IMG/VR virus record: IMGVR_UViG_3300029786_000322
Length of the DNA: 64,000 bases
From: a virus
Direction: 5' to 3' (one strand)
The translations under genes were made by a program, and so were the position numbers. The notes beneath the pieces were generated by a model, which was given only the letters and a program-made list of their open reading frames with translations, did no database searches and was not told where the DNA came from. Positions 1,281 to 62,872 of the stretch are shown here, piece by piece (position 1 is the first letter of the stretch; each line of letters starts with the position of its first letter).

Positions 1281-3584
1281 ATGAATCAGAATAAGAAGAT
1301 AGCAGAGAAAAAATCAAGACCATACCAGCAGGAATGCATTGATAAGGTAGACAGCTTAAAAGAAGGAAGATTCCTGATTGCTCTTGCAACAGGGCTTGGG
1401 AAGACATGGATCTTCTCCCACTTTAAGAGATACGGAAGGGTACTTATTCTTTCACACAGGGATGAACTGGTCAACCAGCCGAGACGGTATTTCGACTGTA
1501 GTTTTGGCGTAGAAAAGGCAGAAAACCATTCCAATGGGGAAGAGGTAGTATCTGCGAGTGTTCAGACACTCAGCCATGACTCCCGTCTTAAGCAGTATAA
1601 GCCGGACGATTTCCACACGATCATCATTGATGAGGCGCACCACGCTGCCGCACCATCCTATAAGAAGATCTTAAATTATTTTTCCGGCGCTAAGCGTGTA
1701 ATCGGTGTCACGGCAACTCCGAAGCGTGGCGACAACGTCCGGTTAGATGACGTTTTTAACGAGATTATTTATGCAAAGGATCTTCGTTGGGGGATTAAAA
1801 ATAAATATTTAAGTCCGGTGCACTGCCGGGAGGTCCGTGCAAAATATTCCCTGAAAGGCGTAAAAAAATCTATGGGGGATTTTAATGTATCCGATTTGGA
1901 CGGTTGTATTACGGAAGAAGCTGTAATAAGTGTTGCAAAAGTTCTTACAGACTGTCTCCAGGAGAATCGGCATATTCTTATTTATTGTACTACTGTCAGA
2001 ACCTGTAATTTCCTGAAGGCAGTAGTTGACAAACTGCTCCCGGAAAAAGAACGTGGCAGTGTTGCTGTTTTATCAGGGAAAACACAGGAAGAAGATAGAA
2101 AAAATATGCTTGATGGTTTTATGAACGGGAGTGTCCGCGCCATTATTAACTGCATGGTTTTAACAGAAGGTACAGATCTTCCTATTGCGGATACCATTAT
2201 CAACTTCCGGCCGACGTGCAACGCGTCTTTGTATCAGCAGATCATCGGAAGAGGAACCCGGCTCTATGAAGGTAAGGAAAACTGTTTATGCATTGATATT
2301 CTTCCAGATGATGGCAGCGGGACAAGAAATCTGTGTACAGCTCTTACTCTTTTTGGTATAGATGCAAAACTTCTTGGAAAGAAACAGTCTCGAATGCTTG
2401 AAGGTGAGATTGATCCGCTTGAGATTAGCGATGAAATTGCAGGACGATTTGCAGAACTTACAAAGGCGTATGAATATCGGTTGGAGCAGGTTAATCGCTT
2501 TGTGCAGGAGCAGGAAGAAATTATATCTTCTGCGCGGAAGAAACCACATGCAGATTTAAGCGACCTTGCGCATGCAGTAGATAAATATAATTCAAAGAAA
2601 ATGGATGAATTCCAAAATGATTATGATTTTCTTGGAATGGATTACTCACTTATGCCGGATACGGAACATCGTTATTGTATCAAACCTACATGGAATGACC
2701 ATATTTACCTTGCTGATCCAGATGTTATGGGTAATACAACAGTTACGTTTGATCTTACTGCCAGTGTCGGGAAATATTATATCGGTGAAATGAAAATGCA
2801 GGATGCAATTTCATTTGTTCATGATTTTTGTATGGTATCTCCAGATTATATGAAATATTCCTGGAACGTGGCATTACAAGATGAATGGGGGAAAATAAAA
2901 GCAACTGAAAATCAAATTGGACGTCTTATGAATGAGTATGACGGGTTTCACAAAGGAAATATTAACAAACTTCAAGCATCCAGACTGATTGATCTTGCCT
3001 CTCGTATTTCGAAGATGAAGGCAGAGGGGAAAATGATGCTTATTACACCAAGAATGCAGGAAAAAACAATTGATAAAAAAAAGAAAATGTTTAAGGAAAT
3101 ACTCGAAAAGGAACTGAGGGCAAAAGAGCAGGGGCGTAGTGAGTTTGGAGAATTCCAGTCGAAAATCTTTGCTTTGGCAGAAAAAAAGAAAAAAGACGAA
3201 GAGAAATTAAAGAACCAAAAGCCTTTGGAAGAAGAAATGCTCGAAAATGGGGCGATTACAGTTAATATTGCTGTTTTTAGTTCAAAAAAAACAGCAAGCG
3301 ATGCGCAGATAAAATTTCTTGGTAATTTAAAAGATAAATTAAAAAACAGAGGAGTGGCTGTCGATAAAAAAATTCCTTATATAGGAATGGGAGCAGAAGA
3401 GGCAAGTGTATATATTACTATATTAAAAACGCTTGTAGATCGTAACGTAGACCTTATAAAATATGGTAAAAAAATTTATTTTAATCCAAATACAATCATG
3501 AGTGTTGTATTAAAACTAAAGGACACTTCATCCAGAGAAATTAAATGTTGTATCCCGTTCGAAAAAATAGAAGAATTGAGATAA
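1281..3584 (+). CDS. superfamily-2 DEAD/DEAH-box helicase (type III restriction res-like ATPase core) with a long Lys-rich C-terminal extension
   Basis: Walker A ATGLGKT, DEAH box IIIDEAHH, motif III VTATP, motif VI QQIIGRGTR. RBS AGGGAG precedes the ATG. Confidence 0.85.
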   Translation: MNQNKKIAEKKSRPYQQECIDKVDSLKEGRFLIALATGLGKTWIFSHFKRYGRVLILSHRDELVNQPRRYFDCSFGVEKAENHSNGEEVVSASVQTLSHDSRLKQYKPDDFHTIIIDEAHHAAAPSYKKILNYFSGAKRVIGVTATPKRGDNVRLDDVFNEIIYAKDLRWGIKNKYLSPVHCREVRAKYSLKGVKKSMGDFNVSDLDGCITEEAVISVAKVLTDCLQENRHILIYCTTVRTCNFLKAVVDKLLPEKERGSVAVLSGKTQEEDRKNMLDGFMNGSVRAIINCMVLTEGTDLPIADTIINFRPTCNASLYQQIIGRGTRLYEGKENCLCIDILPDDGSGTRNLCTALTLFGIDAKLLGKKQSRMLEGEIDPLEISDEIAGRFAELTKAYEYRLEQVNRFVQEQEEIISSARKKPHADLSDLAHAVDKYNSKKMDEFQNDYDFLGMDYSLMPDTEHRYCIKPTWNDHIYLADPDVMGNTTVTFDLTASVGKYYIGEMKMQDAISFVHDFCMVSPDYMKYSWNVALQDEWGKIKATENQIGRLMNEYDGFHKGNINKLQASRLIDLASRISKMKAEGKMMLITPRMQEKTIDKKKKMFKEILEKELRAKEQGRSEFGEFQSKIFALAEKKKKDEEKLKNQKPLEEEMLENGAITVNIAVFSSKKTASDAQIKFLGNLKDKLKNRGVAVDKKIPYIGMGAEEASVYITILKTLVDRNVDLIKYGKKIYFNPNTIMSVVLKLKDTSSREIKCCIPFEKIEELR

Positions 3585-3758: not shown

Positions 3759-3992
3759 GTTGCACCACGCAAGGGTGCAGGGGTGAAATATTATACTGAA
3801 TCGTCGCTGCCTGCATAGATATAGTTGCATCCCTTATGGGATGTATGGGTTGAAATTCAATAGAAACAGATGCATTCGGAGGTGTTACAAGTTGCACCCC
3901 CGCAAGGGGTGCATGGGTTGAAAATAAGAAATGGTAGGAAGGAATTCAGATATGAACATTAGTTGCATCCCGCAAGGGTGCAGGGGTGAAGT
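3759..3992 (+). CRISPR. mini CRISPR array A: 4 type I-C-like repeats, 3 spacers of 33-35 nt
   Basis: Repeats at 3759-3789, 3824-3856, 3891-3925 and 3962-3992. They keep GTTGC...(G/T)GGTTGAAAT ends, but each has a different palindromic stem. Spacer 2 recurs in array D. Confidence 0.7.
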
Positions 3993-9539: not shown

Positions 9540-9746
9540 TGCCCGTTTACAGTCTATAAAAGACATATTGTATCCAGAATTAAGCAAACAAGCCGTTTCT
9601 TCTCGCCTGTAGAAGGAAGGTTGAACTGGATGAAGATGTGACAGTAGACAACTGGAAGGCTCGTATAGATATTGATGAATTAGAAGCTACATATCGGGTC
9701 GCAGATTTATATACCGGTTCAATCGAAGCGTGATAGTTAATGTGTA

Positions 9747-12479: not shown

Positions 12480-12590
12480 TTTGATCATGGCGAAACGATA
12501 CCAAAGAAAGTCCGGTTTGCAGTGTACGAAAAATGCAACCACCGGTGCAATTTTTACTTCGAAAAGATCGGACTGGATATGGCGTAAGTT
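12480..12590 (+). pseudogene. internally deleted remnant of an HNH endonuclease gene (compare 49753-50169)
   Basis: Encodes ...KKVRFAVYEKCNHRC|NFYFEKIGLD, i.e. the N- and C-terminal ends of the HNH protein fused, with the catalytic core missing. Confidence 0.4.
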
Positions 12591-12602
12591 TTCAAAAAAT
12601 CT

Positions 12603-12629
12603 TTGACGATTTTTCAAAAGGCGCAATAT
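12603..12629 (+). promoter_or_regulatory. conserved promoter-like element copy 4
   Basis: TTGACG-N11-GGCGCAATATGTATAGTG. Confidence 0.65.
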
Positions 12630-12636
12630 GTATAGT

Positions 12637-12780
12637 GTAAAGGTCATAAACCGAGCTGCCAGGGTTACCGGCTGGCAGAAAATCCTTTCGAAAAATGTTT
12701 ACGTTCCGGGAAATCCCCGGAAAGGATAGTGGGTACGCAGCGCAAGTTATTCCGGGTTCGACTCCCGGATATCCTTTTTC
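12637..12780 (+). ncRNA. structured leader RNA, copy 2
   Basis: Same three-hairpin architecture and T-loop-like terminal hairpin plus U-tract as copy 1. Closing stem AAAGGAUA/UAUCCUUU. Confidence 0.55.
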
Positions 12781-12812: not shown

Positions 12813-13118
12813 ATGGATGAACTGATCAAGAAACTTCGGATGTATGCAGACACATACAAAAAAGAACCAGCCGGACGGGAAGTTGAAGGTACCGTGGAAT
12901 TGCTCGAAAATTCTGCAGATGCTTTGCAGGAAGCAGGGGAGGCTGTTCAAAAATTAAAGCAGAGATTTGTGGATGGAATAGATGTCCATTACCAGGGACA
13001 TGATGCCGACGATTACATTGAGTGTCCTTTCTGCGGATACGAGGTTGCAGCGATCGACGATTACTGTGAGCTGCGCCCAAATCATTGTCCGAAATGTGGA
13101 ACAAAGCTGATATACTAG
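12813..13118 (+). CDS. small zinc-ribbon protein, 101 aa
   Basis: GGAGGA RBS. C-terminal CPFCG...CPKCG zinc ribbon. The track ORF start at 12729 overlaps the leader RNA. Confidence 0.6.
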   Translation: MDELIKKLRMYADTYKKEPAGREVEGTVELLENSADALQEAGEAVQKLKQRFVDGIDVHYQGHDADDYIECPFCGYEVAAIDDYCELRPNHCPKCGTKLIY

Positions 13119-13133
13119 ATATAGGAGGCTGGC

Positions 13134-13361
13134 ATGAAAGAATTGAGGAAGTTGTGCATGCACCCATTGTGCGATGCAGAGCCAAAAATGCATACGATTT
13201 ACGAATATATCGGAAAAGCCGGGACGAAAGGTACGACAGTTTTGTGGTTCCTTGAGATCCCAAAAAAGGAGCCAAAGTGTATGGGATCAGTGAGGAAGAC
13301 CATGTTTCTCCGTATATGGAAGGCATGGCATTCCGGTATGCAGAATTCAAACCATACATGA
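13134..13361 (+). CDS. hypothetical protein, 75 aa
   Basis: RBS TATAGGAGGCTGGCATG. Confidence 0.45.
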   Translation: MKELRKLCMHPLCDAEPKMHTIYEYIGKAGTKGTTVLWFLEIPKKEPKCMGSVRKTMFLRIWKAWHSGMQNSNHT

Positions 13362-13470
13362 TTGATGAGATTTACAGCAATGGATTCGTTGTCTGCCACG
13401 AGTGTTAGGATAAGACAAAAATGCGTGTCCAATTAACAAGAAGGAATATGCGGTAAGTAATGGAGATATT

Positions 13471-13950
13471 GTGGATATAAATGCAGAATACCACAAAAGG
13501 GCATCAAATCTTGGCATGGAGAAGCAGAGGACTTACCTTCAGTATGAGATCTCCAAGCCAGATGCCATCAGAAAAGATCTTGAGACCGCAAAAAAGAGGC
13601 TGGAAAAGGCAAAAGAAAGAAATTTTAAAACGTTGGATGAGTGGGAAGAAAAAATTGAAGCTTATACGAAAGTGTTGGAAGACAGCAAAGTATCTTCCTT
13701 GTTTTACAATGATATTTCTAACGCCATTTCGGACGGAACAGCACAGTGCCGTATCTGTACCTTCGTTTGGCAGGGTAAATGGAAATATACGGAAAATATT
13801 TCCCTTGGAGTGTGCGTCGTGATCAAGCACATGGGGTACACCTACATTTTTGGCACAAGTCCAGACAGCCAGTATTCTCCATGTTTTGCAGTATGGGAAA
13901 GCGAAGGAGAACCAGAGCTGGAAGAAGAAAACTACCTTATAGTCAAGTAA
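13471..13950 (+). CDS. hypothetical protein, 159 aa (GTG start)
   Basis: GGAG lies 8 nt upstream of the GTG. Coiled-coil-like N-terminus. Confidence 0.45.
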   Translation: MDINAEYHKRASNLGMEKQRTYLQYEISKPDAIRKDLETAKKRLEKAKERNFKTLDEWEEKIEAYTKVLEDSKVSSLFYNDISNAISDGTAQCRICTFVWQGKWKYTENISLGVCVVIKHMGYTYIFGTSPDSQYSPCFAVWESEGEPELEEENYLIVK

Positions 13951-14002
13951 GAAAGAAGCCGTGGAATCCCGACTTTTCTGCTGCATTGTGTGTATATTTT
14001 AA

Positions 14003-14075
14003 CGCCGCCTGCGGGATTCGAACCCGCGGATAAAGAGTTCAAAGCTCCCTGCGTTAACCTTTTCGCCAAGGCGGA
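14003..14075 (-). tRNA. tRNA-Gln(TTG), provisional
   Basis: T-arm GCGGG-TTCGAAT-CCCGC, anticodon loop CTTTGAA, U1 as in Gln tRNAs. Acceptor pair 1-72 is mismatched. Confidence 0.5.
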
Positions 14076-14076
14076 G

Positions 14077-14144
14077 CACACCCGGAAGGACTCGAACCCT
14101 CGTTACCGGTTTTGGAGACCAGTTTCTGTCCATCAGACAGGTGC
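14077..14144 (-). tRNA. tRNA-Trp(CCA), provisional (short D-arm)
   Basis: Anticodon arm CTGGT-CTCCAAA-ACCGG identical to the canonical Trp arm. T-loop TTCGAGT. Acceptor GCACCTG/CGGGTGT has two G-U pairs. Confidence 0.5.
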
Positions 14145-14148
14145 ATAA

Positions 14149-14219
14149 CAGGCGATAATGGAATCGAACCATTGTTTTCTGAGTCAGAATCAGATGTCTT
14201 ACCATTGAACGAATCGCCC
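14149..14219 (-). tRNA. tRNA-Gln(CTG), provisional
   Basis: Anticodon arm TCTGA-TTCTGAC-TCAGA, T-arm AATGG-TTCGATT-CCATT. Confidence 0.55.
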
Positions 14220-14221
14220 AG

Positions 14222-14295
14222 TATCCCCAAAGGGACTCGAACCCTTAACCGACAGATTAGAAATCTGTTGCTCTTTCCAATTGAGCTATGGGGAT
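14222..14295 (-). tRNA. tRNA-Arg(TCT)
   Basis: Acceptor ATCCCCA/TGGGGAT, D-stem GCTC/GAGC, anticodon arm ACAGA-TTTCTAA-TCTGT, T-arm AAGGG-TTCGAGT-CCCTT. Confidence 0.7.
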
Positions 14296-14301
14296 ATATA
14301 G

Positions 14302-14391
14302 CGCAGACACCGGGGATCGAACCCGGACAGCGGGTGTGCCGCATGCCACATTAGCAGTGTGGAGGGGTACCATTTACCTTTATATGTCTGC
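14302..14391 (-). tRNA. class II tRNA-Ser(GCT), provisional
   Basis: 90 nt. Anticodon arm CCACA-CTGCTAA-TGTGG, long variable arm GCGG..CCGC, T-arm CCGGG-TTCGATC-CCCGG, acceptor GCAGACA/TGTCTGC. Confidence 0.55.
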
Positions 14392-14396
14392 ATAAG

Positions 14397-14468
14397 AGGC
14401 ATCGGAGGGGATCGAACCCTCGCCTTCCGGGTTGCAGCCGGACGCCTTCGCCGTTTGGCTACGATGCC
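14397..14468 (-). tRNA. tRNA-Cys(GCA)
   Basis: Acceptor GGCATCG/CGATGCC, anticodon arm TCCGG-CTGCAAC-CCGGA, T-arm GAGGG-TTCGATC-CCCTC. Confidence 0.7.
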
Positions 14469-14498
14469 ATATAATTCTTCCCGATAAGAGAAGATGAG

Positions 14499-14582
14499 CG
14501 CTGGGGCAGGGAGTCGAACCCTGATATCCTTTCGGAATGACGGTTTTCAGGACCGTTGCTTTACCAGTTGAGCCACCACAGC
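14499..14582 (-). tRNA. class II tRNA-Ser(TGA), provisional (C33, one acceptor mismatch)
   Basis: 84 nt. Anticodon arm ACGGT-CCTGAAA-ACCGT, variable arm TCC-GAAA-GGA, T-arm CAGGG-TTCGACT-CCCTG. Confidence 0.5.
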
Positions 14583-14827
14583 AAAAATAAAAGCATACAC
14601 CTCTCAATCGAAAGATGTATGCTTTGCAATTCCAGGTATTTCCAATATTCTCCCGGAAATTTCCCTACAATGACCACATTTCTTTCAATTTGAGACAATA
14701 TTTATTTGCACGACAACTACGCCAGATACATGACTGCGACTGACTCATACTTGCCTGTGAATATTGTCTCATTACTGCTGTAATCATTGATTTTCCCTTC
14801 CTTTCCTTGGTTTTCTTGAATATTTAG

Positions 14828-14901
14828 TGTGTCTGGTGGGACTTGAACCCGACGACCCCACGATTAAAAGTCGCGTGCTCTGCCAACTGAGCTACAGACA
14901 C
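14828..14901 (-). tRNA. tRNA-Lys(TTT)
   Basis: Acceptor GTGTCTG/CAGACAC, D-arm GCTC-AGTTGGCA-GAGC, anticodon arm CGCGA-CTTTTAA-TCGTG. The T-stem has a 1-nt bulge. Confidence 0.65.
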
Positions 14902-14906
14902 ATAAG

Positions 14907-14978
14907 CGGATCAGGAGGGAATCGAACCCTCATCTTCCGGTAGACAGCCGGATGTACTAGCCGCTATACTACAGATCC
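14907..14978 (-). tRNA. tRNA-Asp(GTC), provisional (U37, one acceptor U-U)
   Basis: Anticodon arm TCCGG-CTGTCTA-CCGGA, T-arm GAGGG-TTCGATT-CCCTC. Confidence 0.55.
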
Positions 14979-14982
14979 ATAA

Positions 14983-15055
14983 AGCTCCCGTCCGGCTTCG
15001 AACCGGAAACCTTCTGATTACAAGTCAGATGCACTACCAGTTGTGCTACAGGAGC
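14983..15055 (-). tRNA. tRNA-Thr(TGT)
   Basis: Acceptor GCTCCTG/CGGGAGC, D-stem GCAC/GTGC, anticodon arm TCTGA-CTTGTAA-TCAGA, T-arm TCCGG-TTCGAAG-CCGGA. Confidence 0.7.
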
Positions 15056-15139
15056 AGGAACACTTCCGACGGGTGCTGCCCCGCTATCTCCGCCGTGACA
15101 GGGCGGTGACTCTGTTGTTTGTCCTCGGAAGTAAATAAG

Positions 15140-15221
15140 TGCGCCGGGGAGGACTCGAACCTCCGGTGTTTCTTTGTGGCTGATTTACAGTCAGCTGCTG
15201 TCGCCTCTGAGCCACCGACGC
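15140..15221 (-). tRNA. class II tRNA-Tyr(GTA)
   Basis: Anticodon arm GCTGA-CTGTAAA-TCAGC, long variable arm, T-arm GGAGG-TTCGAGT-CCTCC, acceptor GCGTCGG/CCGGCGC. Confidence 0.7.
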
Positions 15222-15226
15222 ATAAG

Positions 15227-15298
15227 CTGGTCCGGAGGGTCTCGAACCCTCAACGCCCCGGTTAACAGCCGGGTGCTCTACCATTGAGCTACGGATCA
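15227..15298 (-). tRNA. tRNA-Asn(GTT)
   Basis: D-arm GCTC-AATGGTA-GAGC, anticodon arm CCCGG-CTGTTAA-CCGGG, T-arm GAGGG-TTCGAGA-CCCTC. One A-C acceptor mismatch. Confidence 0.65.
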
Positions 15299-15299
15299 G

Positions 15300-15371
15300 A
15301 GCATGTGACGGGTCTCGAACCCGCCCGTCCTGCTTGGAAGGCAGGTGTGCCGCCAACAACACTTCACATGC
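15300..15371 (-). tRNA. tRNA-Gly(TCC)
   Basis: Acceptor GCATGTG/CACATGC, anticodon arm CCTGC-CTTCCAA-GCAGG, T-arm GCGGG-TTCGAGA-CCCGT. Confidence 0.7.
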
Positions 15372-15436
15372 ATGCGGATAAAAGAAGTGCCTGTTTTCTC
15401 TTATCCATTCAGTTTTTTTACCGCATCGCTGCGGAG

Positions 15437-15508
15437 TGGACAGGAGTGGTAACGATCCACCCTGTAAGGATTTTCAGTCCTTCGCTAATCCATCTCAGCT
15501 ACCTGTCC
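15437..15508 (-). tRNA. tRNA-Phe(GAA) with an atypical T-loop (A54/U58 swapped)
   Basis: Perfect acceptor GGACAGG/CCTGTCC, D-arm GCTG-AGATGGAT-TAGC, anticodon arm AAGGA-CTGAAAA-TCCTT, T-arm GGTGG-ATCGTTA-CCACT. Confidence 0.55.
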
Positions 15509-17116: not shown

Positions 17117-17222
17117 TTGCATTCCAGTGGAATGCATGGGGTGAAAGAAATAGGCAAATCGCATGACAATTTCTGAAATTAAATTGTTGCGCTCCCGTGG
17201 AGGGGGGCGTATGGATTGAAAT
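17116..17222 (+). CRISPR. mini CRISPR array B: 2 repeats, 1 spacer
   Basis: Repeats GTTGCATTCCAGTGGAATGCATGGGGTGAAA and GTTGCGCTCCCGTGGAGGGGGGCGTATGGATTGAAAT. Begins at the last base of the upstream stop codon. Confidence 0.55.
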
Positions 17223-17576: not shown

Positions 17577-17598
17577 GTTTACACTTTCAATATGAAAT
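17577..17598 (-). promoter_or_regulatory. conserved minus-strand upstream motif, copy 2
   Basis: GTTTACACTTTCAATATGAAAT. Confidence 0.45.
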
Positions 17599-17628
17599 GA
17601 AAATATTTCAAAACATTTCCAAAAACTT

Positions 17629-17655
17629 TTGACGATTTTTTAAATGGCGCAATAT
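17629..17655 (+). promoter_or_regulatory. conserved promoter-like element copy 6
   Basis: TTGACG-N11-GGCGCAATATGTATCATG. Confidence 0.65.
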
Positions 17656-17662
17656 GTATCAT

Positions 17663-17805
17663 GTAAAGGTCATAAACCGAGCTGCCAGGGTTATCGGCTG
17701 GCAGAAATCTTTTCGATATTTGTTTACACTCCGGGGAAACCCGGAAGGGGTAGTGAGGACGCAGCGTGTGCTGTTTCCGGGTTCGATTCCCGGGTATCCC
17801 TTTTG
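17663..17805 (+). ncRNA. structured leader RNA, copy 3
   Basis: Same architecture as copies 1 and 2. CCGGGUUCGAUUCCCGG T-loop-like hairpin plus U-tract. Closing stem AAGGGGUA/UAUCCCUUUU. Confidence 0.55.
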
Positions 17806-18810: not shown

Positions 18811-18915
18811 GCTGCATCATGTGCGGGGGTGTATGGATTGAAATGTCGGAGTATGGTGTAAGAATCATATATATTCCTACGTTGTGCTCCTCCCGGTTGG
18901 TGCACGGGTTGAAAT
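18811..18915 (+). CRISPR. mini CRISPR array C: 2 repeats, 1 spacer
   Basis: GCTGCATCATGTGCGGGGGTGTATGGATTGAAAT, a 35-nt spacer, then GTTGTGCTCCTCCCGGTTGGTGCACGGGTTGAAAT. Starts 2 nt after the upstream stop codon. Confidence 0.55.
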
Positions 18916-20486: not shown

Positions 20487-20506
20487 GTAAGAAGATATAC
20501 TTTACT

Positions 20507-20724
20507 GTTGCGCCCCATTGGGTGCATGGGTTGAAATCTTTATGACCTTCTGAAAAGTGAGGGCATCTTAGTTGCACCCCCGCAAGGGATGTATGGGTTG
20601 AAATTCAATAGAAACAGATGCATTCGAAGGCGTTACAAGTTGCACCCCGCGAGGGGTGTATGGGTTGAAATTGCAGAAAGCTCAGGATTGGAAGGTTGCA
20701 TCCTATGGGATGCATGGATTGAAA
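20507..20724 (+). CRISPR. mini CRISPR array D: 4 repeats, 3 spacers
   Basis: Repeats at 20507-20537, 20571-20604, 20639-20671 and 20695-20724 with divergent stems. Spacer 2 (20605-20637) is near-identical to spacer 2 of array A. Starts 20 nt after the upstream stop. Confidence 0.7.
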
Positions 20725-20764
20725 CGAACATATTTGTTATTATTTATTATTGAGATCAGAAAGG

Positions 20765-20800: not shown

Positions 20801-20828
20801 CAATTTTTTAAAAATTTTCCAAAATCTT

Positions 20829-20855
20829 TTGACGATTTTTTAAAAGGCGCAATAT
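20829..20855 (+). promoter_or_regulatory. conserved promoter-like element copy 7
   Basis: TTGACG-N11-GGCGCAATAT. Its flank CCAAAATCTTTTGAC matches spacer 3 of the main array. Confidence 0.6.
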
Positions 20856-21170: not shown

Positions 21171-21200
21171 GTTGTGCCCCTATGGGGTGCATGGGTAATA
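21171..21200 (+). CRISPR. solitary degenerate CRISPR repeat in the cas5 5' UTR
   Basis: GTTGTGCCCCTATGGGGTGCATGGGTAATA has the repeat 5' end and hairpin but a degenerate 3' handle. Confidence 0.35.
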
Positions 21201-21210
21201 AGAGAAAGGA

Positions 21211-21885
21211 ATGGAAAAAGAAAAAATGGGAGTGAAACTAAAAGTCTGGGGAGATTACGCATTGTTCACCAGACCAGAACTGAAAACTGAACGGTATACA
21301 TACGATGTGATGACACCGTCGGCGGCTAGAGGAATTCTGGAATCTATCTACTGGCATCCGGGACTTCGGTGGTATGTAGACAAGATTCATGTATTAAATC
21401 CGATTGCCACTACGAGCGTGAGAAGAAATGAACTTCTCAGTAAGATACCAAAGTCAAATATGCTGCAGGCATACAACGGCGGGGATGTGAAACTGTATAA
21501 CTCGTCAAGAGACGATATTATCCAGAGGGCATCTGTTATTCTCCGGGATGTCTGCTATGTGATTGAGGCGCATTTTGAAATGACAGGGAAAGCGAGCCCA
21601 ACAGACAGCCCGGCAAAGTTTATAAGTATCTTTAACAACAGGGCAAGAAAAGGGGCATGTTATTCGATGCCGTATTTTGGTGTAAGGGAATTCCCGGCAC
21701 ACTTTGAACTCTGCGAAGGAGATGAAAAGATCCCATCCTACTATGAAGGACTTCCGGATAAAGATCTCGGGCTGATGCTTTATGATCTGGATTACTCCTG
21801 CGGTAGAGATATCCAGCCAATGTATTATCATGCGATTATGAAAAACGGCGTTATTGACGTTGGGAACAGTGAGGTGCTTCGATGA
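21211..21885 (+). CDS. cas5: Cas5 (type I-C Cas5d, crRNA-processing subunit)
   Basis: N-terminal LKVWGDYALFTRPE...SAARGILESIYWHPG is the Cas5d signature. The stop overlaps the cas8c start (ATGA). Confidence 0.9.
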   Translation: MEKEKMGVKLKVWGDYALFTRPELKTERYTYDVMTPSAARGILESIYWHPGLRWYVDKIHVLNPIATTSVRRNELLSKIPKSNMLQAYNGGDVKLYNSSRDDIIQRASVILRDVCYVIEAHFEMTGKASPTDSPAKFISIFNNRARKGACYSMPYFGVREFPAHFELCEGDEKIPSYYEGLPDKDLGLMLYDLDYSCGRDIQPMYYHAIMKNGVIDVGNSEVLR

Positions 21886-23621
21886 TCCTTCAGTCACTTG
21901 TGAAATTATATGAAACACTTGCGGATCAGGGAAAAGTGTCCCGTCCTGGCTGGTGTAATGCAAAGGTATCCTATGCGGTGGTTTTAAACCATGATGGGAC
22001 GATTAAAGATATTGTTTCCGTGAAACAGAAAGTGAAGAGAGGAAAGAAGACTGTTGAAATTCCAATAATTATGCAGGTTCCAGAGATGGTCACCCGCGCT
22101 AACAACATTGCCTCCAGCTTTCTCTGCGAAAATGCAAAGTATCTCTTTGGGATTGACGAAAAGATGAGTTTGCGTACACTGGAATGTTTTAAGGCGGCAA
22201 AGAAAAAACATCTTGATATTCTTGATGTTGTGGATTCACCTGTAGCACAGACGGTATGTAACTTTTTCCGTTCATGGGATCCGGAACAGGCGTTGGATCA
22301 ACCGGCTGTTGCAAAACTTGCAGAAGAGTTTTATAAAGGCGGAAACCTCGTTTTTGAAGTAGATGGGGAATATGTGCATGATAATGAAGAAGTCCGCAGG
22401 GCATGGATGGATTACAGCAGTGTACCATATGAAATGGTAACTGGAAGATGCCTTATTACTGGAGAGGAAGCGGAGATTGCCCGCACGCACGGGAAAATCA
22501 AAGGAGTTCCGGGAGCACAGTCATCTGGCGCGTCGCTTGTATCATTTAACGGAGCATCCCTTGAGTCTTATGAAAAAACACAGAGCTACAACGCGCCGAT
22601 TAGCACCTATGCGGCGTATGCATATGTGACCGCGCTGAATTACTTGCTTTCTACGGACGGGTATCACAGCAAGGTAGGAGATTCCATGGTGGTTTTCTGG
22701 ACAGATTCCGGGGATGTGGATGATGTGAGCAGACTGCGGAAGATGATGGGAAGCATCAATGAAAAGGATCACACCCCTACAGATACGGATGAAAAACTGT
22801 ACGTCCTCTGCCTTGCACCAAATGCCGGGCGAATTGCAGTCCGGTTCTTCTATGAGGATGCGATCGGGGTAATCTGGGAAAACCTGTCCGAACATGCCAG
22901 TCGGATGAAGATTGTAAAACCAGTATTTGAGGATCAAGAATTTATCAATATCTGGCAGATGCTCATGGAGACAGTCAACCAGAATCTTACAGATAAAACA
23001 CCTGTCCCGCATATGTCAGCAATGACGTTACAGTCAGTCATTTCGGATACACCGTATCCGCAGAGTCTGTATGCAGGTGTGTTATCTCGTATCCGCGCGG
23101 AGCACAAAGGTGTTACTTACAGAAAAGCATCGATTATTAAAGCTTTTTTAATAAAGAACTACAAATGGGAGGAAGGAAAAAATATGGAAGCATTAAATGA
23201 AGGCTGTAAGGATCGGGCATATATCCTTGGAAGACTGTTTGCGGTTATGGAAAAGGCACAGAAAGAAGCAGTTGGCAATATCAACCAGACAATTTGTGAT
23301 AAGTTTTACAATTCCGCGTGCACAACACCAAGATCGATCTTTCCAGTACTGATCAGGCTATCTAACAGTCATTTAAGTAAGTTGAAACGGACAAAACCGG
23401 GGAGAGGATATTATTTTACAGCTAAAATGCAGGATTTAATGGATAAAATTCCGGTAACAGATGATGATCCGGGATTCCCGCGGCGTTTCTCATATGAGGA
23501 TCAGGGTAAGTTTGCACTTGGTTATTATCATCAGATGCGGGCGGAATATACAAGCAGTAAGTTAAAAGATAATGATTCAGAAGGTGATCAGACAAATGCA
23601 GAGAATATGGAGGAAAACTAA
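21882..23621 (+). CDS. cas8c: Cas8c (Csd1), type I-C large subunit
   Basis: 579 aa. Its position between cas5 and cas7 and its size fit Csd1. N-terminal MILQSLVKLYETL. Confidence 0.85.
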   Translation: MILQSLVKLYETLADQGKVSRPGWCNAKVSYAVVLNHDGTIKDIVSVKQKVKRGKKTVEIPIIMQVPEMVTRANNIASSFLCENAKYLFGIDEKMSLRTLECFKAAKKKHLDILDVVDSPVAQTVCNFFRSWDPEQALDQPAVAKLAEEFYKGGNLVFEVDGEYVHDNEEVRRAWMDYSSVPYEMVTGRCLITGEEAEIARTHGKIKGVPGAQSSGASLVSFNGASLESYEKTQSYNAPISTYAAYAYVTALNYLLSTDGYHSKVGDSMVVFWTDSGDVDDVSRLRKMMGSINEKDHTPTDTDEKLYVLCLAPNAGRIAVRFFYEDAIGVIWENLSEHASRMKIVKPVFEDQEFINIWQMLMETVNQNLTDKTPVPHMSAMTLQSVISDTPYPQSLYAGVLSRIRAEHKGVTYRKASIIKAFLIKNYKWEEGKNMEALNEGCKDRAYILGRLFAVMEKAQKEAVGNINQTICDKFYNSACTTPRSIFPVLIRLSNSHLSKLKRTKPGRGYYFTAKMQDLMDKIPVTDDDPGFPRRFSYEDQGKFALGYYHQMRAEYTSSKLKDNDSEGDQTNAENMEEN

Positions 23622-23622
23622 G

Positions 23623-24534
23623 ATGAGCACACCAATTAAGAACAGATATGATTTCGTAGTATTATTCGACGTAGAGAATGGAAATCCGAACGGTGATCCG
23701 GATGCCGGAAATATGCCGAGAGTTGATCCAGAGACTGGCATCGGGCTTGTGACAGATGCCTGCATAAAGCGCAAGATCCGTAATTATGTGGAAACTGTAA
23801 AAGAAGATGCAGCCGGGTTCAAGATCTATATTAAAGAGGGGGTCCCGCTGAACCGGAGTGACCTTAAGGCAGTCGAAAGTCTTGGTATTGACGTCGGTGA
23901 CGACAAAAATGCACTTGAAGATGTAAAGAAGCTGAAAAAGACAGATGAAGATGTGGATCTTAAGCTCCGTGACTATATGTGTAGTAATTTCTATGATATC
24001 CGTACATTTGGTGCTGTCTTGACTACCTTTACAAAGGCGGCATTAAACTGTGGGCAGGTACGTGGCCCGGTACAGATTGGTTTTGCAAAAAGTATTGATC
24101 CTGTTTTCAGCCAGGATATTACTGTAACCAGAGTTGCAATCACAACGGAAAAGGATGCGGAAAAGAAAAATACAGAAATGGGAAGAAAGAGTATTATTCC
24201 TTATGGACTTTACCGTGTGGAGGGATATATTTCTGCTAATCTTGCCCGTAAGACCACCGGCTTTTCTGAAGACGATCTGGAACTGCTTTGGGAAGCAATC
24301 ATTAACATGTTTGAGAATGACCATTCCGCAGCACGCGGGAAGATGGCAGTGCGTGAGCTCATCGTATTCAAGCATAACAGCGAGCTTGGCAATTGTCCAT
24401 CGTACAAACTGTTTGAAACTGTTGATGTTAAGAAGAATGATGGTGTTGAGTTTCCTCGTAAATATTCCGATTATGCAGTGACTATTCATGAGGATGCGAT
24501 TCCGGATGGCGTGACAATGACTCGCAAAATCTAA
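23623..24534 (+). CDS. cas7: Cas7 (Csd2), type I-C backbone subunit
   Basis: Start at MSTPIKNRYDF with a GGAGGA RBS. DVENGNPNGDPDAGNMPR is the Csd2 signature. Confidence 0.9.
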   Translation: MSTPIKNRYDFVVLFDVENGNPNGDPDAGNMPRVDPETGIGLVTDACIKRKIRNYVETVKEDAAGFKIYIKEGVPLNRSDLKAVESLGIDVGDDKNALEDVKKLKKTDEDVDLKLRDYMCSNFYDIRTFGAVLTTFTKAALNCGQVRGPVQIGFAKSIDPVFSQDITVTRVAITTEKDAEKKNTEMGRKSIIPYGLYRVEGYISANLARKTTGFSEDDLELLWEAIINMFENDHSAARGKMAVRELIVFKHNSELGNCPSYKLFETVDVKKNDGVEFPRKYSDYAVTIHEDAIPDGVTMTRKI

Positions 24535-24784
24535 AAAGATTTCCAGAGATTACAAGGCAACCCGCGTTTTGCGGGCTGCATCTGCTTGGGTTATGCCGAA
24601 ATGTAGAATTCCGGTGCGAACTGAAAGCTTACATAGCTTCTCTGGGAGACTCGCACCGGAAATGGAGGTATTAGTGTACAAAAAGAACACAAAACCCAAC
24701 TGTATAAGGCCGTTTGAGAACAATTAATTAGAGGAATTGTTTATATTTTGGCGATCGGGAGAGTTGTTTCTGTTCACTTTTACA

Positions 24785-25482
24785 GCTACGCCCCATGGAG
24801 GGGCGTATGGATTGAAAATGATTGTTATTGTTTTTTATTCATGGAGAGGAAAGCTACGCCCCATGGAGGGGCGTATGGATTGAAAAGTAAGGTTTCGTCT
24901 CGAAGCCTTTATTCTGTTTTGCTACGCCCCATGGAGGGGCGTATGGATTGAAATACCAAAATCTTTTGACATTCTTATAAATGGTAACAGCTACGTCTTA
25001 TGGGGTACGTATGGATTGAAATCATAATAATTGTAGAGATCTCAATACAAAATAAAGCTGCGTCTCATGGAATACGTATGGATTGAAATGAAAAGGCGAG
25101 TTTGCGAAAGCAGATATTGGAATGTTGCGTCTCGTGGAGTACGTATGGATTGAAATTCCAACTTTAACTACATAACTATCCTGATAAACTTGCTGCACCC
25201 CATGGAGAGTGTATGGATTGAAATTTAAAAAATCATGGATAACATCTGCGATAAGACGTTGCACCTCGCTAGGGGTGTATGGGTTGAAATTTCCATAATC
25301 GGTAGCCAATTATTATCATTAGGTGTTGCACCCCATAGAGGGTGTATGGATTGAAATTATATAAAAATGATGAATATGTAAAAAAAATAAAAGAGTTACG
25401 CTCCATGGAGTGCGTATGGCTTGAAACCTCTTATTTTTTTAAAGATATCACAATTACGCCCAAAGTGGGCTTACGTAAATTT
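24785..25482 (+). CRISPR. main CRISPR array: 10 repeats of 33 nt plus a degenerate terminal repeat, spacers of 33-37 nt
   Basis: Repeats at 24785, 24853, 24921, 24990, 25057, 25124, 25192, 25258, 25325 and 25395. A degenerate eleventh sits at 25454-25482. The first three are identical (GCTACGCCCCATGGAGGGGCGTATGGATTGAAA). Later ones keep the GYTRC 5' end and TATGGATTGAAAT 3' handle but have different, internally complementary stems. Confidence 0.85.
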
Positions 25483-32332: not shown

Positions 32333-32524
32333 TTTCTTGCGGAGCAGAGCAGAGGAAGGCTCACCGGGCTCATGACCTGGGTGTCGGATGTTCGATTCCT
32401 TTCTCCGCAATTAATTTTAAAAAAGGGAGGTTATAACATGTTCTAACTGATTAGAAAACATAAACAAGCATTCGTTCAAAAGAAAGATTCGTATGTGAAA
32501 AAAGGATGGGAGGAAAAGAAAATC

Positions 32525-41257: not shown

Positions 41258-41402
41258 TATAATGAATTACGTTTTAAATTTATGGCGAAAAATCCACAGG
41301 CTTGCCTGTGGGATGAAAGCTACATTTTTCACTTACTTGTTTCAACAGTTGGACACATAAGTGAAACTACAGTGATCAAATACATTGAGGAGCAGAAAAC
41401 AC

Positions 41403-42791
41403 ATGGATGCTGACGAGTACAAAAAACTTCTGAAAAAATTTCATAAACTTTCTGACAGGCATATCCTGGTCGCTGAGACGGATATGTCTTATCCTGATGT
41501 GCAGAAGGTCGTAAATTTCTCCGGCAGGATCCGGAAAGCTGGCAATGAGCTTGTTGGTGTCATGAAAAAGAATTATGAACAGCTCATGCGTACCAAAAAG
41601 TACCGCAAGATGCTCCAGCTGTATGGCTCCACTGAGGACAAAAACAAACGCAAAACATATGCCGGACAGCTCAACGAAATGCAGGAACAGTATAATCTCA
41701 CAAAGGAGTCCTGCCGGACGTTGATGATACCCATTGGCAAGAAGTACGGCATTGATGCCATATTTGCCCTCGCGAAAGCCGAGGACGTGTGGCGAGGTGT
41801 TGAAAAATGCCTTTACGGGAATGGAAGGATGCTTCATTTCTCCAGATATGGAGACTTTCCATGCATCAGGGCAAAGCAGATCAACCGCGGCGTCCCGATG
41901 CCCGTAAAAAACGATGAACTGAAGTTTAAGCTGGGAAAATTAGTTTTCGGGATACAGGTCAAAGACCGGTTCCAGACAGACGAAGTCAATGCCGTCCTGG
42001 ATTATCTGGCACAGCCGGAAGTCATAGACAACAAGGCAGTAAAGACTCTTCAGGATGAAGCGTGCTGTATCAGCACGTACCGGCCTTGCTACGCAACGCT
42101 CGTACCGAAATTCATCCGTGGGAAATACAGGGTGTACCTGCATCTCGTCATCGAAGGAAAGGCAAAACCGAAGTACGACAGTTCCGGCAATCCGCGGCAT
42201 AAATACGGCAGGGGCGTCGTTGGTGCGGACATTGGCACACAGACGATAGCCTATACTTCCGATACAGAGACAGGACTTAAAAACTTATCGGAAAGAGGCA
42301 ACAGCATACAGAAATCCGAACGTCTGGAAAGACTGTATTACCGCGCCATGGACCGAAGCAGACGTGCCACGAATCCGGAGAATTACAACGCCGATGGCAC
42401 CATTAAGAAAGGGAAGAAGAAGTGGACTTACTCCAGGCATTACAAAAAGCTGAAGGCAAAACATGCGGAACTCTGCCGCATAAATGCCACAAACAGGCAG
42501 CTTGCCATAAATGAGGATGTAAACCACCTGCGTTGTCTCGGAGATACATTTGTCACGGAACCTAAAAATGCAGCCAGGCTCATGAAACGGGCGAAAGAGA
42601 CAACTGTTAATAACAAAGGCAAGATCAACAGGAAGAAACGTTTTGGAAAGTCGGTAAAGAACCGGTGCCCGGGCGGTTTCCAGGCTGCCGTGGAAAATAA
42701 GTTCAAAACATCCGGCGGTACATATATAGAAGTACCCAATAATTACAGGGCAAGCCAGTATGACCACACGGCAGATGATTACATAAATTAG
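41403..42791 (+). CDS. tnpB: TnpB-like RuvC-fold protein, truncated by an insertion (lacks RuvC-III and the C-terminus)
   Basis: RuvC-I VVGADIGTQTIAYTSD and the central region FQAAVENKFKTSGGTYIEVPNNYRASQYDH. The frame stops right after a 217-bp segment that is repeated at 43153-43370. Confidence 0.6.
   Translation: MDADEYKKLLKKFHKLSDRHILVAETDMSYPDVQKVVNFSGRIRKAGNELVGVMKKNYEQLMRTKKYRKMLQLYGSTEDKNKRKTYAGQLNEMQEQYNLTKESCRTLMIPIGKKYGIDAIFALAKAEDVWRGVEKCLYGNGRMLHFSRYGDFPCIRAKQINRGVPMPVKNDELKFKLGKLVFGIQVKDRFQTDEVNAVLDYLAQPEVIDNKAVKTLQDEACCISTYRPCYATLVPKFIRGKYRVYLHLVIEGKAKPKYDSSGNPRHKYGRGVVGADIGTQTIAYTSDTETGLKNLSERGNSIQKSERLERLYYRAMDRSRRATNPENYNADGTIKKGKKKWTYSRHYKKLKAKHAELCRINATNRQLAINEDVNHLRCLGDTFVTEPKNAARLMKRAKETTVNNKGKINRKKRFGKSVKNRCPGGFQAAVENKFKTSGGTYIEVPNNYRASQYDHTADDYIN
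42570..42788 (+). repeat. direct repeat copy 1 (about 217 bp, tnpB internal segment)
   Basis: Near-identical to 43153-43370. The two copies flank a roughly 365-bp insert. Confidence 0.7.
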
Positions 42792-45941: not shown

Positions 45942-46040
45942 GTTGCACTCCCGCGGAGGGGGTGCATGGATTGAAATCGACTTTCGAAACGGTAATTGGA
46001 TTTTACTACGCTGCGTCCCCGCGAGGGGCGCATGGATAAA
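45942..46040 (+). CRISPR. mini CRISPR array G: 2 repeats, 1 spacer
   Basis: GTTGCACTCCCGCGGAGGGGGTGCATGGATTGAAAT, a 32-nt spacer, then GCTGCGTCCCCGCGAGGGGCGCATGGATAAA. Confidence 0.5.
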
Positions 46041-46064
46041 GAAACAGGGAAAGGGAGGGAACGT

Positions 46065-48509: not shown

Positions 48510-48536
48510 TTGACGATTTTATAAATGGCGCAATAT
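48510..48536 (+). promoter_or_regulatory. conserved promoter-like element copy 11
   Basis: TTGACG-N11-GGCGCAATATGTATAGTG. Confidence 0.65.
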
Positions 48537-57285: not shown

Positions 57286-57411
57286 TCAATGGCATTATCA
57301 GAGATTATTTATTTTTCTGATTATTGATATACTTCTCAACTGCATCTGCTGTACGGTCACTTACAGTTTTATTCTCTGTAAAAATAAAATTTAAAAAGTT
57401 TCCAAAATCCT

Positions 57412-57438
57412 TTGACAAAATCACAAAAGGCGCAATAT
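57412..57438 (+). promoter_or_regulatory. conserved promoter-like element copy 12 (drives tnpB)
   Basis: TTGACA-N11-GGCGCAATATGTATACCG. Confidence 0.65.
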
Positions 57439-57485: not shown

Positions 57486-59015
57486 ATGGGTTACATGCGT
57501 ACTGCAACTGTATATATCAATGAGGGACACCCTCTGTTCAAATATGCAGACAACTTAACAGCACTGACCAACAACCTCAGTAACGCGGCACGTTTCCGTC
57601 AGCGGCAGGTGCTCTCAGCTGTCTCCAAAGAGGAAGCTGACTGGACAGCCAACGAGCGCGAGGTTATGGAGGAAATCCGTAAAACAGTCCCTCTGAGGGA
57701 AAAGGCATCCATGCCGACCAAAGGAAAACATTTCCTCGGATATATGTTTCTTGAGGGGATCTTGCGGGTGAACCATAACCCGGATTTTTACGCTGAAGGA
57801 CTGCCTCGCCAGACAGCACAGCATGTCTTAAAGACTGCAGTGAAAGACATGAAGAGTTTTTATAAAGCCATTAAGGAATACAATAAAAACCCTGACCGTT
57901 TCACCGGACAGCCAGAACTTCCAGGCTACAAACGCAAGGGAGGCCATTCCACTGCGCTGATCACCAACCAGGACTGCACAATCAAAACCTGTGACGGCAA
58001 GTGGTATGCGTACTTTCCTCACGCAAAGGATAAACCCGTGTGCCTTGGATATCCGATACCGAATGCAAGACTTAAACAGGCATGCATCACTCCGAACAAC
58101 GGACGGTATAAGTTGTCCTTTCAGTTTGAAGTAGATGCAGATATCCCGGAAATCCCAGAGGATATCCGTCCAGAGCGTATCTGTGCCATTGACTTTGGTG
58201 TGGACAACCTTATGTCGGTCACAAACAACTGCGGTCTGCCATCCCTGATTTATAAAGGCGGTGTGGCAAAGTCCGTCAACCAGAAATACAACAAAACGAT
58301 AGCTGCACTCGTGAGCGAGCAGACCCTCCGTACCGGGGAAAAGTTTGTCCCAGATGCAGCGTATCACGCTGCAACAAACAGAAGAAACGACCAGATCTCT
58401 GATTTCATGCGAAAGTGCGCAAAACACTTCGTGGCATGGTGCATAGAAAACCGTATCGACACCGTTGTCATGGGTATAAACAAGTACTGGAAGCAGGAAG
58501 CAGGCCTCGGCAAAAGAAACAACCAGAACTTTGTGCAGCTCCCGTTTGACAGGCTGCGTAACATCATCCGCTATCTCTGCGTATGGGAAGGCATCTTCTG
58601 TCTGGATCAGGAGGAAAGCTATACTTCAAAAGCAAGCTTTCCGGACAGGGACTTTATCCCTGTATACGGTAATGAGAAAGGAAAACCCTCCTTCTCCAGA
58701 CAGCGGAGACCTGTACATTACAAGGGAATGTACAAAAAGGATGGCTTCCGCGGGCTTTATACAACAAAATCCGGCGATATCATCAACTCCGACCTGAATG
58801 GATCTGCAAATATCCTGCGGAAAGCATTCCCAAACGCTTTCACAGAAAAACCTGCGCCTGATTTTAACAGTGTGGTAATTATCCGCCATCCGGATGAAGA
58901 AAAAGTCAAAAATAACCGGAAGAAACAGACGGCAGTGCAAAAACAGGACAGCCATGCAAAAATCAAACGGCAGCGCAAAAAGGATGCAAAGCGTAAAAAA
59001 CATCCGGCTGCGTAA
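57486..59015 (+). CDS. tnpB: TnpB-like RNA-guided-nuclease-family protein (RuvC-I/II/III present, zinc finger degenerate). No tnpA present
   Basis: RuvC-I ICAIDFGVDNLMSVT, RuvC-II region VAWCIENRIDTVVMGINKYWKQ, EESYTSK, RuvC-III INSDLNGSANILRK. AAAGGAGACAACTGATATG RBS. Confidence 0.85.
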   Translation: MGYMRTATVYINEGHPLFKYADNLTALTNNLSNAARFRQRQVLSAVSKEEADWTANEREVMEEIRKTVPLREKASMPTKGKHFLGYMFLEGILRVNHNPDFYAEGLPRQTAQHVLKTAVKDMKSFYKAIKEYNKNPDRFTGQPELPGYKRKGGHSTALITNQDCTIKTCDGKWYAYFPHAKDKPVCLGYPIPNARLKQACITPNNGRYKLSFQFEVDADIPEIPEDIRPERICAIDFGVDNLMSVTNNCGLPSLIYKGGVAKSVNQKYNKTIAALVSEQTLRTGEKFVPDAAYHAATNRRNDQISDFMRKCAKHFVAWCIENRIDTVVMGINKYWKQEAGLGKRNNQNFVQLPFDRLRNIIRYLCVWEGIFCLDQEESYTSKASFPDRDFIPVYGNEKGKPSFSRQRRPVHYKGMYKKDGFRGLYTTKSGDIINSDLNGSANILRKAFPNAFTEKPAPDFNSVVIIRHPDEEKVKNNRKKQTAVQKQDSHAKIKRQRKKDAKRKKHPAA

Positions 59016-62669: not shown

Positions 62670-62780
62670 ATTTTGGAAAATGATGGTAGGAAATTTAAAG
62701 AGCATGATTAAAAATGAATAGAAGAAAAGCCAAAAAGTGAAAGAATAACACCTATCTTTTATGTAGTAAGTATATTTACA

Positions 62781-62872
62781 GTTGCATCCCTTATGGGATG
62801 TATGGGTTGAAATGCAATCAGGCTGCGGATGCTACCGGCTTGTTGCGCTTTATGAGGCGCATGGATGGAAAT
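62781..62872 (+). CRISPR. mini CRISPR array H: 2 repeats, 1 spacer
   Basis: The first repeat, GTTGCATCCCTTATGGGATGTATGGGTTGAAAT, is identical to repeat 2 of array A. The second is GTTGCGCTTTATGAGGCGCATGGATGGAAAT. Confidence 0.55.

Follow-up and report, generated by a model that had tools for sequence, protein, structure and literature searches.

A spacer of an element-borne type I-C CRISPR array with no Cas3 gene found nearby matches the promoter-like region of a putative holin-like toxin gene in a Roseburia faecis island

The window analyzed here, a stretch of 64,000 nucleotides held as a viral record (IMGVR_UViG_3300029786_000322), carries on its + strand a compact type I-C CRISPR effector operon followed by a repeat-spacer array. 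The operon consists of cas5c (21211–21885; PF09704, 2.5e-38; TIGR01876, 176 bits against a cut-off of 85), cas8c/csd1 (21882–23621; PF09709, 3e-165; TIGR01863, 400 bits against a cut-off of 219), and cas7/csd2 (23623–24534; PF05107, 1e-107; TIGR02589, 342 bits against a cut-off of 182; given in the 303-aa form called in public assemblies), so that all three type I-C Cascade components are present and score above the curated Pfam and NCBIfam cut-offs. Among the cellular homologs of Cas8c listed, the nearest share about 50% identity, and those with a name belong to Roseburia or Eubacterium. Downstream of a promoter-like copy at 21064, the 5′ untranslated region of cas5c contains a degenerate repeat hairpin (TGCCCCTATGGGGTGCATGGGTAATAA, 21175–21201) that stops 10 nt short of the ATG, a candidate site at which Cas5c might regulate its own operon.

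Ten public copies of the locus show no Cas3, Cas1, Cas2, or Cas4 among the called genes up to 10 kb before and after cas8c, and none was found in the upstream flank or among the larger open reading frames scanned in the window. The region examined comprises the 64-kb window and about 10 kb upstream of it, taken from a public contig of the same element. Within this region, the check for cas1, cas2, and cas4 relied on precomputed Pfam labels, available for about the leading half of the window plus the ∼10 kb before it, and on scanned open reading frames, which took in some, not all, of the small ones at 34–64 kb. The 767-aa helicase encoded at 1281–3584 has neither an HD nor a Cas3 domain. An earlier, sequence-only reading of this DNA had described the complex as a Cas3-less Cascade, and for the region examined, with cas5c–cas8c–cas7 and no Cas3, that description stands; the element as a whole measures 200–375 kb, and a cas3 gene or a better self-target could sit in the rest of it.

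The main array (24785–25427, + strand) comprises ten repeats and nine spacers and is separated from cas7 by a leader of 250 nt (24535–24784). Its repeats have the length, hairpin, 3′ tail, and 11-nt handle of type I-C; canonical repeats of this type measure about 32–34 nt and combine a hairpin with a 3′ tail, ATTGAAAY, that gives such a handle. The third spacer, F3 (ACCAAAATCTTTTGACATTCTTATAAATGGTAACA, 24955–24989, + strand), was read directly and has the normal length of 35 nt; both its sequence and its position had been given correctly before. The repeat 5′ of F3 (24921–24954) is the same in sequence as both leader-proximal repeats and folds at −15.3 kcal/mol (z −3.4), its 8-bp hairpin leaving an 11-nt tail, UGGAUUGAAAU, as the crRNA 5′ handle. 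The repeat on the 3′ side (24990–25022) has diverged, with most of the stem gone and only a weak hairpin left (−3.9 kcal/mol, z −0.15), and judging from this fold, crRNA processing there may be inefficient. Repeats 1–3 of the array are identical and the older ones heterogeneous; within 25023–25427 the two sides of the stem change in pairs from repeat to repeat (ACGCCCC/GGGGCGT, GCACCCC/GGGGTGT, and others), and the tail ATGGATTGAAAT is kept.

In ten other samples (L001–L010) F3 is identical, all nine spacers are unchanged, and one or two extra units stand between the leader and the first repeat (locus coordinates about 12900–13700): the spacer TACCGCAACAATTAAAGGCAATGAAAATCTTGTAC in all ten, TATGATTACTATTGGAAGTAATGATGGGCAGGG in L001 only, and GTAAAATGATAAACTGCTGCATTACCAAAATACTC in L010 only. 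The four array alleles compared, distinguished by the extra units X0, X1, and X2, share the final 60 nt of the leader and differ by leader-proximal units only, which is the pattern of polarized spacer gain, new repeat-spacer units going in beside the leader. Degraded as it looks, the main array evidently still gains spacers without cas1, cas2, or cas4 nearby, and the adaptation proteins presumably come in trans. F3 is unit 3 here and unit 4 or 5 in the other samples, and its conservation is no greater than that of the neighboring spacers. Because the array gains spacers at its leader end in different samples, we conclude that F3 is an ordinary acquired spacer. A role as an internal array promoter was rejected, the spacer having a −35 box and linker and lacking the conserved GGCGCAATAT box.

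What kind of element carries this system? Public assemblies contain the exact Cas8c protein in 1,584 blocks; the contigs that carry it reach 200–375 kb, and none exceeds 1 Mb. All ten places listed for its locus are metagenome assemblies or a metagenome-assembled genome (MAG), and the exact Cas7 and the flotillin of the window are present in NCBI MAGs named Roseburia faecis. The carrier is a large extrachromosomal element of 200–375 kb whose contigs fall into bins of R. faecis MAGs, and R. faecis is its probable host. No phage hallmark gene was found in the window, and the label of phage, used in the sequence-only reading, is unsupported. Other genes of the window encode methyltransferases, a helicase, a PcfJ-like protein, and TnpB-like proteins (41385–42791 and 57486–59015). 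An AAA ATPase gene at 32495–33490 matches the defense protein IetA (PADLOC, 1e-51), with a peptidase M41-like gene just before it in public copies of the locus. Almost all other genes lie on the + strand, and 13 of the 14 tRNA genes are clustered on the − strand at 14002–15508, the remaining one being a tRNA-Met at 32337–32411. Near-identical local tandem duplications are found at 42568–42792/43151–43375 (99% identity), 49997–50193/50671–50867 (95%), and 40084–40383/40686–40985 (85%).

I-C-like mini-arrays and solitary repeats are also scattered between genes, all on the + strand and at a distance from the main array, at 3823–3924, 17189–17222, 18811–18844, 20504–20725, 45944–46043, and 62780–62872. 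The single spacer at 3857–3890 is identical at 32 of 34 positions to the second spacer of the mini-array at 20504–20725, the third spacer of which is only 22 nt long. These scattered repeats could represent Racr/Cracr-like RNAs or Cas5c processing sites in operon transcripts.

A promoter-like repeat of 85 nt, built around the core TTGACGATTTTTYAAAWGGCGCAATATGTAT, occurs at least 11 times in the window. The copies are intergenic, several of them just after terminator-like hairpins, and lie 20–60 nt before the ribosome-binding site (RBS) and ATG of + strand genes; from this position we infer that they are promoters, and a sigma-70 consensus scan did not call them. Directly after three of the copies stands a conserved element of about 150 nt (1004–1153, 12567–12716, and 17593–17742; 69–81% identity) with a tRNA-like T-arm, TTCCGGGTTCGATTCCCGG, at its end. 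Rfam gives no family match for it beyond a 17-nt tmRNA-like fragment, and it may be an undescribed small RNA.

F3 resembles this family, and the sequence-only reading had built on that resemblance. The best own match is copy 7 (20818–20852, + strand), about 390 nt upstream of cas5, which agrees with F3 at 25 of 35 positions. Its exact run, CCAAAATCTTTTGAC at 20819–20833, does comprise the 15 consecutive bases reported earlier; the run corresponds to spacer positions 2–16, however, with position 1 mismatched, and leaves out the first base of the seed that it had been said to cover. Nor does copy 7 offer the TTC protospacer-adjacent motif (PAM) placed one nucleotide upstream of the match: this TTC occupies 20817–20819, overlaps the first matched base, and is 2 nt out of the register set by the fixed 11-nt 5′ handle, the in-register triplet being TTT. 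Copy 6 (17618–17652, + strand) likewise reaches 25/35, with ATT, and the copy at 57385 reaches 23/35 over 57401–57435 (+ strand), with GTT, this being copy 12 of the sequence-only reading. The match described for copy 11 is real over the 3′ half of the spacer only (16 of 19 bases, 48510–48528), with just 19/35 overall. The remaining copies agree with F3 in register at 18–22 of 35 positions, the copy at 21064, directly before cas5, at 22 with TAT.

Across all 11 own copies the in-register triplet is CTT, ATT, TTT, TAT, or GTT and nowhere TTC; position 1, an A in F3, is a T in every copy; and each copy has at least ten mismatches overall. F3 is alone among the spacers of the window in having a noticeable self match. 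Of 400 shuffled versions of this A/T-rich spacer, 1% attained a run of 15 nt and 0.5% an identity of 25/35; with about 20 spacers tested, the self match is, on the window alone, only suggestive, at moderate significance. The likeness between F3 and the family nevertheless reflects homology rather than chance, because its register is constant with the whole repeat family and because a protospacer outside the window bears it out.

This outside protospacer was found by searching the metagenome collection for VACCAAAATCTTTTGACATTC, in which bases 1–20 of F3 follow any base other than T, a query that drops array copies and with them any protospacer carrying T at −1, so that a TTT-flanked copy elsewhere would be missed. 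Four of the 13 matches were chance 20-mers. Nine human-gut contigs carry the sequence aaaaTTC directly followed by ACCAAAATCTTTTGACATTCTTATAAATGGCAACA, which agrees with F3 at 34 of 35 positions, the sole mismatch falling at position 31. The same site is present in seven further contigs fetched independently through neighboring genes, bringing the total to 16 human-gut contigs. At this protospacer, which we call T, the type I-C PAM 5′-TTC is present in all 16 contigs, as it is at none of the own-promoter copies, and among the 16 protospacer copies there are no PAM or seed escape variants. T also confirms the borders of F3: the TTC abuts base 1, and the last repeat base is ruled out as part of the spacer, the protospacer having a C there and not a T. 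Aligning the spacers to the window and to other genomes with attention to the PAM had been suggested along with the sequence-only reading, together with the result that would speak against it, namely a perfect protospacer for F3 in an unrelated genome; a near-perfect one in another genome is what was found.

The alignment between T and the promoter family continues past the spacer (GGCAACATATGTAAAATGAAG versus the consensus GGCGCAATATGTATAGTGAAG), and on this evidence T is itself a diverged member of the element's own promoter-like family. F3 looks like the element's promoters only because T and the own copies share ancestry. From −7 to +16, copy 7 and T differ only at PAM position −1 (T versus C) and at +1 (T versus A). 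The earlier suggestion that the spacer was taken from a user of the same promoter family is thereby essentially upheld, given a 34/35 protospacer with TTC that belongs to the family; its source, though, is an R. faecis chromosomal island and not the closely related phage or competitor that had been envisaged.

On a contig of 371,775 bp the gene order is glmS–lepB–nadA–pstS–pstC–pstA, an island of about 8.5 kb, and pstB–phoU–phoB–phoR. The GlmS of this contig has identical counterparts in R. faecis, encoded on contigs that reach 3.85 Mb, and other strains are without the 3.7-kb segment that holds T. Taken together, the gene context, the GlmS identity, and the absence from other strains therefore place T in a strain-variable chromosomal island of the probable host. 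The T-bearing contigs have nothing else in common with the window but one canonical copy of the promoter family; a comparison of island and element for shared genes yielded none, promoter sequence being the only match. The called genes of the island include no integrase or other mobility gene, and no cas genes were present in the 20 kb seen around T.

The canonical family promoter lies about 220 nt upstream of T and is followed by a solitary I-C-like repeat hairpin. In two of the island loci (L021, 10200–10279; L035, about 9580–9700, − strand) the arrangement is a canonical promoter copy, about 14 nt, and the repeat hairpin ACATGTACCATACAAGTGGTACATGGATTGAAAT (−14.3 kcal/mol). A target search with the sequence after the solitary repeat came up empty, and the notion that the island is a CreTA-like module, in which the solitary repeat RNA targets T, was rejected, as this sequence has no seed match to T. 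Another variant of the island (L025, 1–3600) contains three tandem cassettes of about 1156 nt, each made up of a two-repeat mini-array and a gene for a protein of 273–274 aa with an N-terminal signal-peptide-like sequence, a layout suggesting that repeat hairpins are used as inter-gene elements.

Which gene would T control? About 110 nt downstream of it, a strong RBS (AAAGGAGG-N8-ATG) introduces an open reading frame of 29 aa, MITYSTLFEFCKLIVAIISLIFQIFNHKK, encoding a hydrophobic peptide and followed by a hairpin terminator and a merR gene. The peptide matches the Hol_Tox family (PF16935) at 25.9 bits against a gathering score of 23.3, with residues 1–29 aligned to profile positions 1–34 of 34, and can be regarded as a putative holin-like toxin whose score is just above threshold. 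A search for a Hol_Tox homolog in the window found none.

T is the only target that emerged from our searches. In IMG/VR, exact searches with F3 (as a 29-mer and a 19-mer), the promoter consensus, and three other spacers returned no match, as did a Cas8c-based search for the locus. A scan of GTDB genomes with the 19-mer TTGACATTCTTATAAATGG gave six matches, all of them chance hits to the core only (22–26/35), and neither the cas/array region nor the complete array had a BLAST match above chance among isolated phages and plasmids. F3 alone gave a match when every spacer of the window, the three extra ones, and the stretches that follow solitary repeats were set against the window, its flanks, and the R. 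faecis loci; the other eight array spacers and the three extra ones were without a target in all of these searches.

T is very probably both the origin and the cognate target of F3. Type I-C systems strongly prefer 5′-TTC on the non-target strand in vivo (10.1101/2022.06.15.496202), also given as NTTC (PMC6546366), and binding by the type I-E Cascade of E. coli requires a PAM and a seed paired from position 1 (PMC5904413). By these rules T is a full target and the element's own promoters are not, escaping because they lack the PAM and are mismatched at position 1. We propose that F3 was acquired at the leader end of the element-borne array from promoter T. Cas5c would cut the array transcript, and Cascade would be loaded with the F3 crRNA. 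Upon reading the TTC, the complex would form a near-full R-loop at T that begins 11 nt upstream of the −35 TTGACA and stops where the conserved GGCAACATAT box starts, and stable binding would span the −35 box and linker of T. The bound Cascade would then occlude RNA polymerase, silencing the chromosomal toxin gene without DNA cleavage. The proposal supposes production of the F3 crRNA, binding of T by Cascade, repression as the consequence, no Cas3 in the rest of the element or recruited otherwise, and a toxic peptide. Element and island presumably reside together in one cell, and mutual exclusion of the two could also occur. Taken as a whole, an acquired F3 with a host toxin promoter silenced by a nuclease-free Cascade is the best explanation we can offer, and one that we consider reasonably probable; that silencing of T is the function of F3 is put forward more tentatively, as a serious possibility.

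The sequence-only reading had first offered CRISPRi-style self-regulation. By way of the 15-nt match, the F3 crRNA would then bring Cascade, in the absence of Cas3, to promoter copies on the element itself, in a tuning circuit of the CreR/CreA kind. The match of positions 2–16 to copy 7 near cas5 and the 25/35 agreement with two copies fit this idea; CreA/CreR circuits operate on limited PAM-proximal complementarity (10.1101/2023.03.10.532045; 10.1101/2024.01.05.574328), and a seed of 5 nt can suffice for E. coli Cascade binding (PMC5904413). The details of the own copies do not bear it out, since none has an in-register TTC, position 1 and at least ten positions overall are mismatched in all of them, and even the copy directly before cas5 offers just 22/35 and a TAT. 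Off-target binding in type I-E is transcriptionally inert, moreover, and six PAM-distal mismatches lower repression (PMC5904413). F3 itself sits in a normal acquiring array, with normal length, a near-perfect outside target, and no conservation beyond that of its neighbors. Self-regulation therefore strikes us as very improbable, and as possible only in the form of weak off-target binding. It is also conceivable that F3 is a functionless relic, left from an earlier acquisition, with the R. faecis island or a relative as its source, and without effect at present, through either a poor crRNA or inconsequential binding. The repeats in the older half of the array are indeed heterogeneous, the repeat on the 3′ side of F3 folds poorly, other spacers are without a target found, and the I-C array of similar gut megaplasmids has been called ‘apparently degraded’ in a preprint (PMC12934698). 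Set against decay are a 5′ repeat that is intact and identical to the repeats now being duplicated, intact cas genes that do not differ across more than 1,500 collection blocks, an array still gaining spacers, and a PAM and 34 of 35 bases kept on both sides in every copy seen; we regard the relic as unlikely.

Destructive interference would make a different use of the same full-length match and canonical PAM, which are as expected for interference targets: Cascade would recruit a Cas3, from the host or from elsewhere on the element, and cleave island-bearing DNA, F3 serving to exclude a rival island or the strains that carry it. The island is strain-variable and, as might be the case for a rival or something satellite-like, has the promoter family and I-C-like repeats in common with the element, and I-C systems occur in this group of bacteria, as the ∼50% identical Cas8c proteins of Roseburia or Eubacterium attest. 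That same level of identity to the cellular homologs makes cross-recruitment uncertain, and no cas3 was found in the window or its flanks. The absence of a mobility gene from the called genes of the island and of escape variants from the 16 protospacer copies also speaks against an exclusion contest, which we consider improbable.

Why would a chromosomal toxin gene stand behind a promoter of the element's family? Returning to silencing of T by Cascade, we speculate that the island may be an element-sensing trap, in which the Hol_Tox gene would be switched on by the arrival or activity of the element and silenced by the element through natural CRISPRi. Induction of the toxin would lead to abortive infection or plasmid exclusion; the element would have captured T as a spacer, its own promoters being spared by the two base differences at PAM −1 and +1. 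We hold this extension to be rather doubtful.

The idea of self-regulation thus gives way to a host-directed one that can be tested. A very common R. faecis element of the human gut carries a nuclease-free Cascade together with a spacer that is near-perfect for a host toxin-gene promoter, and if binding and repression prove true, this would be natural CRISPR interference by a resident element against a host chromosomal gene. The system would then bring its own control, in the form of look-alike promoters on the element itself with a different PAM and first seed base. The target of F3 also links the element to its host.

How does this arrangement compare with known systems? Huge phages carry CRISPR arrays without nuclease and adaptation genes, with spacers against host chromosomes, for which ‘blocking promoters’, that is, repression without cleavage, has already been proposed (Al-Shayeb et al. 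2020, PMC7162821). Like those systems, the one described here is element-borne and compact, has no cas1, cas2, cas4, or recognizable nuclease nearby, and has one spacer matching a bacterial intergenic promoter region. It differs in its canonical Cas5c–Cas8c–Cas7 effector, in a carrier without a phage hallmark gene in the window, and in its target, the promoter of a Hol_Tox peptide gene that belongs to the element's own promoter family.

The likeness to CreTA/CrePA and to viral Cracr RNAs (10.1101/2024.01.05.574328; 10.1101/2024.10.29.618823) lies in a mobile-element crRNA directed against a chromosomal toxin promoter, with Cascade repression expected. CreA and Cracr RNAs, however, come from degenerate repeats, act through short or partial complementarity, and borrow the host's Cas proteins, whereas F3 has a 34/35 match, a regular array, and the element's own Cascade genes adjacent; the short complementarity and host Cas proteins that mark Cracr RNAs are thus both missing. 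Cracr RNAs target the host cas operon or the promoter of a CRISPR-guarding toxin; the target of F3 is a toxin-family promoter in the host chromosome, in the pst region and not in a cas locus. Nor does F3 resemble CreR/CreA in having a PAM-flanked promoter match in the same genome, the 11 copies being without an in-register TTC, or in coming from a separate, degenerate mini-array, as it lies within an acquiring one.

The type IV-A3 systems of plasmids (10.1101/2023.06.23.546257) are similarly extrachromosomal and nuclease-free, with no adaptation module nearby and polymorphic arrays that imply acquisition in trans, and they act by transcription interference. Here, by contrast, the effector is type I-C and not IV-A with DinG, and the target is chromosomal and not a rival plasmid. 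The Vibrio phage ICP1, in work attributed to Seed and colleagues in 2013, reportedly directs its own type I-F CRISPR array against the PLE island of its host and, with Cas3 present, destroys it. As in ICP1 versus PLE, the element's own array is aimed at a small chromosomal island of the host; unlike there, no Cas3 is seen and the island is without mobility or satellite genes.

The carrier also resembles the ‘Hodor’ conjugative megaplasmids of the human gut (PMC12934698): the two agree in their size and habitat, in having TnpB, and in an I-C system whose array looks degraded. The element may itself be a Hodor megaplasmid, although its window has a GC content of 39.5% as opposed to 44.6–47.1%, and the Hodor markers Rep_3, ParA/B/M, T4SS, and multiple sortases are not in the parts of the window scanned; the Hodor paper contains no spacer-target analysis. 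CRISPR systems that are carried by elements, lack a nuclease, and have spacers matching intergenic DNA of the host are already known as a bioinformatic class, and CreTA and Cracr provide guide RNAs that silence toxin promoters. Two particulars mark the present case: the targeted promoter stems from the element's own promoter family, and it would drive a holin-like toxin gene.
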